DNA from: Candidatus Sigynarchaeum calidifontis
GTDB lineage: Archaea; Asgardarchaeota; Lokiarchaeia; Sigyniarchaeales; Sigyniarchaeaceae
DNA: 60,919 nt
Direction: 5' to 3'
Assembly: GCA_030587475.2 (NCBI GenBank)
Contig: JAUQYZ020000258.1
Span: 1-60,919, forward strand
In this document: piece by piece, positions 30,993 to 34,015 of the stretch
How the letters are laid out: each line of letters begins with the position of its first letter
How positions within the stretch are numbered: the first letter of the stretch is position 1
The notes under the pieces: model-generated
What the model saw: the letters and a program-made list of their open reading frames with translations, nothing else
Told to the model about the DNA's origin: nothing
The model's database searches: none
Translations under genes and position numbers: made by a program

Positions 30993-31219
30993 GATCGGTT
31001 CCCATTTACCAGCATGATTGTCTTGAATGACCTATCTCAATGCAACCTATTAAGGCCATTTGCATCCATTTCTTATAACTAGATAGAAAGGAGAGCGTAT
31101 GGAGTGGTGATTCGCGGAATCAGCCTTCTCTTGATCAATTTTTAATTCCAGATAATATTATCGACTAGTGCTGCGCTCGACTGCCGGTTTCAAGGGTCGT
31201 GTTATCAAATTAAAACTAA

Positions 31220-31320
31220 GCGCCGATATTTTGGAGGAATCCCTTCAAAAACGGCAATGTCTAGTGGTATGATACGGCCCTGCCACGGCTGTGGCCCGGG
31301 TTCGATTCCCGGTCGGCGCA
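31220..31320 (+). tRNA. tRNA-Gly(GCC) with a 30-nt BHB intron (31228-31257) between positions 8/9
   Basis: Acceptor GCGCCGA (31220-31226) pairs with TCGGCGC (31313-31319), discriminator A; D arm GTCTAGTGGTATGAT; anticodon arm CGGCC-CTGCCAC-GGCTG; T arm CCGGG-TTCGATT-CCCGG; no encoded CCA. Confidence 0.9.
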
Positions 31321-31340
31321 TTTCCTTTTTTTCAATTTTC
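31321..31340 (+). terminator. Oligo-T archaeal terminator after the tRNA
   Basis: TTTCCTTTTTTTCAATTTTC immediately after the discriminator base. Confidence 0.6.
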
Positions 31341-31380: not shown

Positions 31381-32175
31381 TTATGCCGGAACCACGACTG
31401 CATCGACGAACAAGTCATATTCCTCGTTCTCGTCGAGATCGTGGATCCGCACCTTCTCGACCTCGGAACCGCCAGACACCTCCACGAGCTCCGCTTGTTT
31501 CAAGAGCTTGATGTCCGAGCGCTTGACCTTGGTCTTGAGCTCGTCGTTCGTGGCGAGGTCCTTCAATGGCGAGAGCAGTATGACCCGCCCGGTCACTTTC
31601 GTGAGCTCCAGGGCAAATTCCACGCTTTTTTGATCGTACTCGACGACGAGCACGCGCTTGCCCTTGAACTGCTCCGGATTCCCATAACCGTGGTAGACCC
31701 CCTTGCCCACGTATTCGGCGAGGCCAGCCACGCTCTTGGCTTCGCCTGCGGGGCACGCAAACCTCGTCTCGCCTGGTTCGGCTGGACCGTGCTTCCCCGC
31801 CTTGAAGTTCTTGATGGCCTCGTGGAGCGCGTCGGCGGCGAGATTGGAACAATGCATCTTGATCGGGGGCAAGCCCTCGAGTTCGTTGGCCACGTCTTGC
31901 CTCGTGATCCGCATGGCCTCGTCCAGCGTCTTGCCCTTCGCGATCTCGGTTATCATGCTGCTGGTTGCGACCGCGGAACCACAGCCGAAGGTCTTGAACT
32001 TGATATCCTCGATTTTCCCGTCCTTGTCGACCTTGATGTAGATGTCCATCAAGTCACCGCAAACGGGATTGCCGACCCGACCCACGGCCACGTTCTCGCC
32101 TTCCAGCGTCCCGACGTTCCGCGGGTTCTTGAAGTGATCCAGCACTTTTTGCGAATAATTCGTGCTTTTTGACAT
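31381..32175 (-). CDS. iscU: IscU/NifU Fe-S scaffold fused to a degenerate thioredoxin-reductase-like domain
   Basis: YSQKVLDHFKNPRNVG, GNPVCGD, FGCGSA, KMHCSNL; C-terminal part resembles the TrxB NADPH domain. Start 32175 or 32187. Confidence 0.9.
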   Translation of the reverse strand: MSKSTNYSQKVLDHFKNPRNVGTLEGENVAVGRVGNPVCGDLMDIYIKVDKDGKIEDIKFKTFGCGSAVATSSMITEIAKGKTLDEAMRITRQDVANELEGLPPIKMHCSNLAADALHEAIKNFKAGKHGPAEPGETRFACPAGEAKSVAGLAEYVGKGVYHGYGNPEQFKGKRVLVVEYDQKSVEFALELTKVTGRVILLSPLKDLATNDELKTKVKRSDIKLLKQAELVEVSGGSEVEKVRIHDLDENEEYDLFVDAVVVPA

Positions 32176-32183
32176 GGTATGCA

Positions 32184-33365
32184 TCATGCCTCTTCTTTTT
32201 TTGTTAGTGGTGATAGATCCCTCAATCGCTTCACGATGCCCGGTAAAAGCTCGAGGAACTTGTCCACGTCCTGCTGCGTCGTCCAGCGGCCGAGTGTGAC
32301 TTCCAGGGAGCCGTGCGCCTCCTCGTGAAGCAACCCGAGAGCGATGAGCGTGTGGCTCGGCTCCAGCGTCTTCGACGAGCAGGCAGATCCCGTCGACACG
32401 GCGACGCCCTTTGCCTTGAACGATATCAGTATTGACTCGCCCTCGATGTAATCGAATCGAAAATGCGCGTTGTTCGGCAGCCTGTTGATCTTGTGGCCGT
32501 TCAAGTGCGATCGGGGGACAATTTCCAGCACCTTCGCAATGATCTGGTCGCGCCACTGCTGGAAACGAGTGCTCTCGGCCGCCATGCTCGCCATCGATAT
32601 TTCCGCGGCTTTTGCGAAGCCAACGATGCCCGCGATGTCTTCCGTGCCGGAACGGAGCCCGCGTTCTTGCCCGCCGCCGATGATAAGCGGGTTCAACGAG
32701 ATGCCCTTGCGCACGTACAGCGCGCCTACTCCTCTCGGGCCGTAAATGTCGTTCGATGACAGCGTGAGCATGTCCACGTTGTCACGCTGCACGTCGATGG
32801 GGATTTGCCCCTCCGATGCGACCGCGTCCACGTGGAACGCGATGCCTTTTTCCCGCGCGAGTTTCCCGATCTCGGCAATGGGCTGGATCGTGCCTATCTC
32901 GTTGCTGGCGTGCTGGACGGAGATCAGCATCGTGTCGGGCCGGATGCGCTCCGCGAGCTTGTCCAGGCGCACGGTTCCCGTGAAATCGACCGGCACTTTC
33001 GAAATCTCGAAGCCATTTTTCCCGAGGTACTTGGCGATATTGTGGATCGAGATGTGCTCGATCTCGCTAATGATGATGTGCTTGCCCTTTTGCTTGTTTC
33101 TCGTGGCAAAACCGATCAAGGCAAGATTGTTCGCCTCGGTAGCACCAGACGTGAAGATGATCTCGTCTGGCTCCTTCGCGTTGATGAATTTCGCAATCAT
33201 TTTCCGTGATGCATCGAGGGCCTCGGTCGACCAGTCGCCGACCTCATGCAGCGACGAGGCATTGCCGAACTTCTCGTTCATGTATGGTAACATTGCCGCG
33301 ATCACGTCCGGATCGACGGGTTTCGACGACTGGTAATCCAGGTAGACGACCTTTTCCGTGCCCAC
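32184..33365 (-). CDS. iscS: IscS/NifS-family cysteine desulfurase homolog (PLP Lys replaced by Asp)
   Basis: YLDY, FTSGATEANN, IEH, NEIGTIQ, HVDAV, SSNDIYGP, RSGTE, GSACSS; GAGGTGA RBS. Confidence 0.9.
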   Translation of the reverse strand: MGTEKVVYLDYQSSKPVDPDVIAAMLPYMNEKFGNASSLHEVGDWSTEALDASRKMIAKFINAKEPDEIIFTSGATEANNLALIGFATRNKQKGKHIIISEIEHISIHNIAKYLGKNGFEISKVPVDFTGTVRLDKLAERIRPDTMLISVQHASNEIGTIQPIAEIGKLAREKGIAFHVDAVASEGQIPIDVQRDNVDMLTLSSNDIYGPRGVGALYVRKGISLNPLIIGGGQERGLRSGTEDIAGIVGFAKAAEISMASMAAESTRFQQWRDQIIAKVLEIVPRSHLNGHKINRLPNNAHFRFDYIEGESILISFKAKGVAVSTGSACSSKTLEPSHTLIALGLLHEEAHGSLEVTLGRWTTQQDVDKFLELLPGIVKRLRDLSPLTKKEEA

Positions 33366-33399
33366 GAGCCTTCACCTCTCTTGTAAAAACACGGGGAAT

Positions 33400-33762
33400 T
33401 CAGAACCACAGCGTGCCGCCGGCATCGAGCACGAGATCGTTGAGCGTTCCCGCGCCGACGATCTTGACGCCCTGAACGAGATCGACCTTGTCCCAGCCGA
33501 GCATCTGCTTCGAGGCCTCGCACGCGTAGATCTTGATGCCCATCTGCATCGTCTTGTCGAGCATTTCCTTCACGCTCGGAAATGACCCTATTTTTATTTT
33601 CTCCGCAGCACCTGGCTTGAGAACCCGCAAGCCTGTTCCCAGGTAATATATCACGGGATCGAGCTCCATGGCCTTCGCGGTCTGCGCGAGTACCAACGGG
33701 GAGTATTGTCGCTCTGGATTGTCGCTGGTTTGCACGTAAAGCAACATTTTTTCGTTCTTCAT
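33400..33762 (-). CDS. DsrE/DsrF-like sulfur-relay protein
   Basis: GIKIYACEAS conserved Cys, VKIVGAG; GGTGA RBS. Confidence 0.8.
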   Translation of the reverse strand: MKNEKMLLYVQTSDNPERQYSPLVLAQTAKAMELDPVIYYLGTGLRVLKPGAAEKIKIGSFPSVKEMLDKTMQMGIKIYACEASKQMLGWDKVDLVQGVKIVGAGTLNDLVLDAGGTLWF

Positions 33763-33775
33763 CTATTGCTCACCT

Positions 33776-34015
33776 TCACTTGAGTTTCTTGATCAAGAAC
33801 CGGAGATTGCCCTCGTTGTTTTCGAGCTTCACGAGCTCGTGGCCCGTCCGCTTGACGAACCGGGTGATGTCCTCCTCGGCAGCCGGATCGTCGGCCAGCA
33901 CCTCGAGCACCTCGCCAACATTAATATTGTCGATGCCTTCCCTGGTCTTGAAGAGGGGCACGGGGCAGTAGAGGCCGACCGTGTCGATCGATTTAGCGAT
34001 TTTTGGATTCACCAT
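33776..34015 (-). CDS. tusA: TusA-family sulfurtransferase
   Basis: DTVGLYCPVP, GEVLEVLADDP, GH. Confidence 0.92.
   Translation of the reverse strand: MVNPKIAKSIDTVGLYCPVPLFKTREGIDNINVGEVLEVLADDPAAEEDITRFVKRTGHELVKLENNEGNLRFLIKKLK

Follow-up and report, generated by a model that had tools for sequence, protein, structure and literature searches.

How can an archaeal tRNA precursor be spliced when the bases that build its splice signal are the same ones that later form its acceptor stem? We address this question for the tRNA-Gly(GCC) gene of Candidatus Sigynarchaeum calidifontis (genome label G000), a Loki-type Asgard archaeon (Promethearchaeota), which occupies positions 31220-31320 on the plus strand of the window, that is, the whole 60,919-nucleotide stretch of contig C71 that was analysed, in an assembly of 4.99 Mb and 89% completeness. 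A minus-strand gene lies upstream of it and a convergent iscU/iscS cluster downstream. This sulfur-handling cluster (31381-34015, minus strand), identified from ORF translations alone, encodes an IscU-like protein with a C-terminal extension, an IscS-like cysteine desulfurase, and DsrE-like and TusA-like small proteins. The parts of the tRNA gene are:

31140-31147, plus strand: TATA-box-like element, the putative promoter (upstream matches of YTTWWWW type lie solely at 31139-31141)
about 31168-31172, plus strand: probable transcription start, placed by its spacing behind the TATA-like element
31172-31183, plus strand: leader block A, antisense to tRNA nucleotides 63-73 (3' acceptor strand and T-stem end)
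31184-31187, plus strand: leader block B, pairing with tRNA nucleotides 49-52 (T-stem 5' strand, 31296-31299) in the MFE fold
31193-31205, plus strand: leader block C, antisense to tRNA nucleotides 21-33 (31269-31281)
31215-31219, plus strand: leader block D, of which 31215-31218 pair with tRNA nucleotides 13-16 (31262-31265) and lengthen the outer helix of the splice motif
31220-31227, plus strand: exon 1, tRNA nucleotides 1-8 (5' acceptor strand 31220-31226)
31228-31257, plus strand: 30-nt intron at 8/9, comprising a hairpin, the unpaired A31251, the central-helix partner and bulge bases 31256-31257
31258-31320, plus strand: exon 2, tRNA nucleotides 9-73 (anticodon GCC at 31282-31284, discriminator A73, CCA not encoded)
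31321-31332, plus strand: T-rich run with 7 T at 31326-31332, a likely archaeal terminator

[quoted passage not shown] The central helix joins 31222-31225 to 31252-31255 in 4/4 Watson-Crick pairs and is in register with both junctions, the bulges are 31226-31228 and 31256-31258, and the intron hairpin has 9 bp (31229-31237/31242-31250). Four Watson-Crick pairs together with an intron helix of at least 4 bp arose at this site in a fraction of 2e-5 of 200,000 intron shuffles. The outer helix (31215-31221 with 31259-31265) contains the single mismatch claimed for it, A-C, and one G-U pair besides. The two 3-nt bulges fared unequally: the 3' site is a strict bulge, but the 5' site prefers a 3x1 internal loop (P 0.57), the strict register being 4.5 kcal/mol less stable. 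In the preferred fold A31251 is extra and unpaired, so that the 5' site is a 3x1 loop and the motif fits the relaxed class of BHB. Removing 31228-31257 leaves a 71-nt cloverleaf whose acceptor, anticodon and T stems are fully paired according to ARAGORN, in which nucleotides 3-6, the central helix of the precursor, belong to the acceptor stem. Truncation by standard scanners had been anticipated, and both ARAGORN and Rfam indeed report the unspliced gene as 31251-31320 alone (38.9 bits), forcing intron bases into the acceptor stem; as such genes are truncated by these tools, Asgard tRNA sets would be undercounted at the 5' end. The host genome holds no further copy of the intron, which by its structure appears to be of the EndA-spliced non-canonical class, relaxed type.

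The 8/9 position can be upheld independently of the BHB. A sister genome of the same genus, G001, carries the gene between the same flanking genes, and there the first exon runs uninterrupted through U8-U9-G10; the mature tRNAs of the two genomes are identical at 71/71 positions. U8-U9 is also found in the intron-less Gly(GCC) genes of G003 and family f2, and the insert cannot slide in either direction along the host gene. Among the other junctions considered, 9/10 (U8-A9) has no central helix and conflicts with the U9 of the orthologues, and 7/8 would lose U8. The upstream near-copy of the acceptor strand, hereafter the decoy, is not a genuine first exon: no U8 follows it, and it is the inner copy that orthologues without the intron possess.

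The sister gene (L002, G001:C23) has another intron, 28 nt long, and no decoy leader. This intron is placed at 15/16 by its sole 4-bp central helix, read from sequence; so placed, 8/9 in the host and 15/16 in G001 within one gene constitute intron turnover within one genus. Since G001 has neither the host intron nor its leader, both were gained (or both lost) after the split. In a genome scan with the tRNA body, G001 was the sole other genome matched, and two metagenome scans did not find the body; no second genome with the same intron and leader turned up from which covariation at the host locus could be read.

Is the gene in use? Its exons are perfectly conserved beside divergent flanks, which argues for a working gene, and GGC is the commonest glycine codon in the long ORFs of the host (38,371 of 85,831). 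The initial annotation had named an intact, intron-less tRNA-Gly(GCC) elsewhere as one of several joint grounds for regarding this copy as a disrupted pseudogene. A second, intron-less copy does exist on C212, the sole other GCC gene in the host, but it is degenerate: it has C33 and C9, its anticodon stem contains two G-U pairs, and it is one of 19 genes in an array whose tRNAs are divergent. On its strength one might suppose that the 30-nt insert stays unspliced, the gene being either a recent pseudogene or functional with a hairpin between its acceptor and D stems, and that the C212 copy supplies Gly(GCC); a short-leader precursor is indeed predicted to form a cloverleaf from which the insert projects as one more arm. 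Against this stand the zero differences of the mature tRNA from the sister while flanks and introns differ, the great improbability of an in-register BHB by chance, the condition of the C212 copy, and the U8-A14 core of established tRNA structure, which a 30-nt arm at 8/9 would break. We therefore regard an unspliced insert as very improbable. The locus appears to be the cell's working tRNA-Gly(GCC) gene, and its intron is very probably real and spliced.

Three other gene types were considered and rejected. A split (trans-spliced) tRNA is at odds with contiguous exons 30 nt apart and one promoter candidate, and a permuted tRNA with upstream sequence that is antisense to the 3' part and includes no sense copy. 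Nor does the locus look like a pseudogene or integration-site remnant, given zero changes relative to the sister, a degenerate other GCC copy and flanks of syntenic housekeeping genes. The host has two arrays of divergent tRNA genes that lack introns, with 19 genes in the first (C212, 11601-17648) and 11 in the second (C82, 46-1816). Many of these genes have C33; the arrays are embedded among ordinary genes, and a Ro60-like ORF lies inside one of them.

The host also encodes the expected machinery. Its three PF01974 matches represent one catalytic EndA subunit split over C178 and C189, and one structural subunit, without the catalytic His, on C230. The catalytic subunit is closest to the alpha subunits of Sulfolobus and Aeropyrum (best PDB matches 2cv8 and 3ajv/3p1z) and keeps a CSL-like loop with its conserved Lys-Pro, which marks the enzyme, as judged from these similarities, as a CSL-type (alpha-beta)2 EndA; the CSL loop has been linked to cleavage of relaxed motifs (PMC12397907). 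An RtcB gene is present on C206. The break in the catalytic gene (C178:1-501 and C189:20945-21172) falls at contig ends that overlap and are partly discordant, a likely assembly artefact. The archaeal RNase P RNA (RF00373) was not matched in the 89%-complete assembly and is either missing or divergent.

That the BHB competes with the acceptor stem and draws on leader sequence, as first proposed, is correct, and from these two properties it follows that splicing would have to precede RNase P. The short leader originally envisaged does take part in the BHB, but it cannot win once the whole transcript is present. With a leader of 10 nt, the BHB is then predicted at P ~3e-6, ~8 kcal/mol less stable than a cloverleaf in which the intron forms an additional arm. 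In nascent RNA with the same leader, the BHB is dominant (P 0.5-0.8) up to nucleotide ~69, before the 3' acceptor strand exists. For any transcription start between 31150 and 31190, by contrast, no predicted fold is more stable than the BHB, which reaches P 0.6 at 37 C and 0.83 at 15 C, and with this long leader the true acceptor stem has a probability below 0.02.

The reason lies in the leader of ~48-50 nt behind the TATA box, which carries four blocks antisense to the tRNA in reverse order. Block A forms an 11-bp duplex with one bulged U and one G-U (-17.9 kcal/mol, matched by 0.9% of 5000 shuffles). Block C, whose target is the 3' D strand and the 5' anticodon-stem strand, forms 13 contiguous pairs, three of them G-U, with zero mismatches (-20.8 kcal/mol, matched by 0.24% of 5000 shuffles). 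The whole duplex of leader and exon 2 reaches -40.4 kcal/mol compared to -27.1 ± 3.7 for dinucleotide shuffles, 7 of 5000 being as good; when the leader is shuffled, the median P(BHB) is 9e-5. Block C alone suffices to flip the fold to the BHB when the leader starts at 31190. Scrambling blocks A-B alone leaves P(BHB) unchanged and scrambling block C alone halves it, whereas scrambling A-B and C together abolishes the BHB; scrambling block D lowers P(BHB) from 0.60 to a median of 0.003. In predicted energies, the exons would be held together after both cuts at -49.0 kcal/mol with the long leader compared to -34.2 with the short one.

This arrangement is peculiar to one gene of the host. When the 50 nt upstream of its 32 tRNA genes were compared with the 3' end of each, complementarity was seen only here (z -3.1, the next gene reaching -1.4), and only tRNA-Gly(GCC) has a 5'-proximal intron; many other host tRNA introns lie in the D-arm and at 37/38. 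No leader decoy was found in the G001 gene or in five relatives that are intron-less or have a D-loop intron. The spacing of the putative promoter points to a start at the decoy: host tRNA promoters mostly lie 35-50 nt before G1, and none is found at that distance here, whereas the TATA-like element lies 32-33 nt before the decoy G. The host tRNA-Ala(GGC) gene on C248 has a TATA-like sequence of the same form upstream.

Two other readings of the leader have to be weighed at this point. The main rival is that the intron is real and cut co-transcriptionally with a 5-nt outer-helix leader, and that the long antisense leader has no selected role, being a product of chance or a relic of how the intron arose, through a fold-back or a partial duplication in inverted orientation. 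As the short-leader BHB prevails in nascent RNA for as long as the 3' acceptor strand is lacking, co-transcriptional cleavage could indeed dispense with blocks A-C. Moreover, the blocks are colinear with the reverse complement of the tRNA (73-63, 52-49, 33-21 and 16-13), as an inverted duplication would give, and this colinear layout may be the trace of a possible fold-back origin. The leader would also impede folding after splicing. Yet at the four paired positions where it deviates from perfect complementarity, G-U pairing is still possible in every case, its loops are deleted, not randomly eroded, and a transcript of ~150 nt would presumably leave only seconds for cleavage before the acceptor strand emerges.

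The other reading makes the leader mainly a regulatory attenuator, which would keep pre-tRNA-Gly misfolded until a helicase, a change of temperature or a trans-acting RNA allowed it to mature, help in splicing being a side effect. The pairing far exceeds what the BHB requires, for which blocks A and C can stand in for each other, and it persists after splicing: in the secondary-structure model, the leader still beats the true acceptor stem by 3.7-7.9 kcal/mol in the spliced product, which would be trapped unless tertiary structure, proteins or leader cleavage free it. The sister's gene, however, manages without a leader decoy. Both readings are also confronted by genes in other Asgard lineages.

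Across a pattern survey of 400 Asgard genomes, insertions at 8/9 were found in three other genes, two tRNA-Asp and one tRNA-Thr, so that the position is rare, in keeping with its being called unusual, but not unique. All three carry an upstream near-copy of the acceptor strand, and it is from these genes that the idea of a leader decoy was drawn. A further survey allowing a second intron gave no additional clear 8/9 case among the 30 loci read. The two tRNA-Asp(GTC) genes, L044 (G056:C59) and L045 (G121:C57), have 30-nt insertions at 8/9 by alignment with differing hairpins; their BHB is one base off register, with either a bulged U or a 4-7 helix that leaves an extra base. As the insertion is common to both genomes, it is not an error. 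A genus-wide search for tRNA-Asp(GTC) yielded just these two intron-bearing genes, hence no intron-less controls from the same genus. The tRNA-Thr(GGT) gene L071 (G276:C14) has a 16-nt intron at 8/9 with a 4/4 central helix, and its upstream copy pairs with the acceptor strand and trailer (11 bp); the predicted probability of the helix is just 0.03 despite the decoy.

A larger set comes from a tRNA-Glu intron at 10/11, widespread in Thorarchaeia, whose central helix uses nucleotides 5-8 and is paired 4/4 in 22/22 loci, with U-G/U-A variation. All 22 genes have a decoy 12-25 nt upstream, with 7/7 pairs in 19 and 6/7 in 3, and in every one of them the decoy cuts the predicted probability of the true acceptor stem from a typical 0.3-1 to below 0.04. 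The median decoy energy is -21.3 kcal/mol in these 22 genes; where the intron is absent, it is -14.4 for the CTC orthologues (13 genes) and -9.2 for the TTC paralogues (26 genes). A weakened 7-nt decoy is kept in 7 of the 13 orthologues, and none of the paralogues reaches 7/7. The Thorarchaeal genomes are kin and not independent samples, so that rank-test P values overstate these differences; what carries weight is the pattern. Conversely, loci chosen solely for a perfect decoy had the intron in 38/38 cases; their TATA box precedes the decoy by 29-33 nt, a spacing that the host gene shares. The decoy would also persist after splicing, with a median advantage of 4.9 kcal/mol in the same model. 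A conserved 12-nt leader decoy at the probable transcription start is seen throughout this tRNA-Glu set (L080-L084, L091, L096, L157-L171 and L205-L243), where it is shorter than the leader of the host tRNA-Gly(GCC).

These genes tell against a relic, since the Thorarchaeal decoy is conserved across genera, unlike the adjacent bases of spacer and intron, which diverge, and is weaker where the intron is absent. They also tell against an attenuator, because decoys follow acceptor-competing introns across isotypes and lineages and not one amino acid. We consider a leader without selected role unlikely, and a mainly regulatory one far less likely still.

Two further patterns were seen in the survey. 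In the tRNA-Thr(CGT) genes of family f28 (L077-L079, L172 and L173; 5/5 genomes), the acceptor strand is present twice, at a distance of 12 nt. They also carry an insert of 29-41 nt near 8/9-9/10, and an in-register BHB was not found for it; L077 and L172 show a further tandem duplication of the 5' part. Introns at about 15/16 (L042, L047, L061, L064-L066, L069, L070, L074-L076 and L085-L088) occur very commonly in Asgard tRNA genes and in many isotypes, and no acceptor decoy is obvious in them by eye.

Our preferred explanation is a working, intron-bearing gene whose antisense leader serves as a splicing helper, to which as a whole we give a probability of roughly 0.68; taken for itself, selection of the leader as a splicing helper is probable. 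Because nucleotides 3-6 of the BHB central helix are also wanted by the 3' acceptor strand, the transcript would start ~50 nt upstream with a cis-acting antisense leader. Transcription would begin at about 31170. By pairing with four parts of the tRNA (3' acceptor strand, T stem, D/anticodon arm and nucleotides 13-16), the leader would suppress the cloverleaf and present the BHB. The (alpha-beta)2 EndA would then cut the relaxed motif after 31227 and 31257 while the leader tethers the 8-nt exon 1 to exon 2 for ligation, and RtcB would join the exons. In the order that seems most plausible, exon 1 would next displace the decoy as the product refolds, RNase P would remove the leader, and tRNase Z and the CCA enzyme would complete maturation alongside it. 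Release of the leader is the weak point of this scheme: its cost would have to be met by proteins, modifications or tertiary folding, which the model leaves out of account.

With somewhat less assurance, we favour a more general proposition: archaeal introns whose BHB is built on acceptor-stem bases (8/9, 10/11) would survive only if a cis-acting leader had evolved alongside them to take the place of the first strand for a time. The host locus would be its elaborate form, a segmented antisense copy that unfolds all four arms, tethers the exons and dictates that splicing come first, refolding next and RNase P last; having arisen together with the intron on one terminal branch, it would imply that such an intron gain needs a second, coupled sequence gain. 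An antisense leader would explain how an intron can be placed where splice signal and mature fold exclude each other, and is relevant to the debated origin of tRNA introns in archaea. A pre-tRNA leader acting as a cis-acting RNA element was absent from the literature searched. The search likewise returned no paper on an 8/9 intron or a leader decoy; primary position tables lay outside it, and absence is not proven.

How does this locus compare with known systems? In the text of a review, non-canonical archaeal tRNA intron sites extend from 20/21 to 59/60, with an extreme 3/4 in Thermoproteales (Yoshihisa 2014, PMC4090602). Position 8/9, which the initial annotation did not count among the commonly reported sites, is absent from that text, but 3/4, still more 5', is published, and acceptor-stem introns are acknowledged elsewhere (PMC12397907). 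Like the non-canonical BHB introns described in the review, the host intron is a short hairpin with a 4-bp central helix, a strict 3-nt bulge at its 3' site and a predicted cut after the second bulge base, in a cell with CSL-type (alpha-beta)2 EndA and RtcB; unlike them, as far as that text goes, its central helix consists wholly of acceptor-stem bases, and no leader helper is described there.

[quoted passage not shown] These two sources present Asgard tRNA introns as lineage-specific, recent gains at BHB-compatible sites that standard annotators miss, and the pair formed by the host and G001 fits such turnover. Goswami et al. class a few acceptor or junction introns as 'other', and their main text names neither 8/9 nor leaders.

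In the split tRNAs of Nanoarchaeum equitans, Caldivirga and Staphylothermus (PMC3218864, PMC4033280), pairing of flanks outside the exons likewise builds the BHB and holds the pieces for ligation. There, however, a leader pairs with a trailer in trans and forms the intron-side helix, whereas in the host the leader of one transcript pairs with the tRNA body and blocks the cloverleaf. The permuted tRNAs of Cyanidioschyzon and Thermofilum (PMC3218864) share a long distance from promoter to tRNA and splicing that obligatorily comes before end processing; unlike theirs, the upstream sequence of the host is complementary to the tRNA and not part of it, and the exon order is normal.
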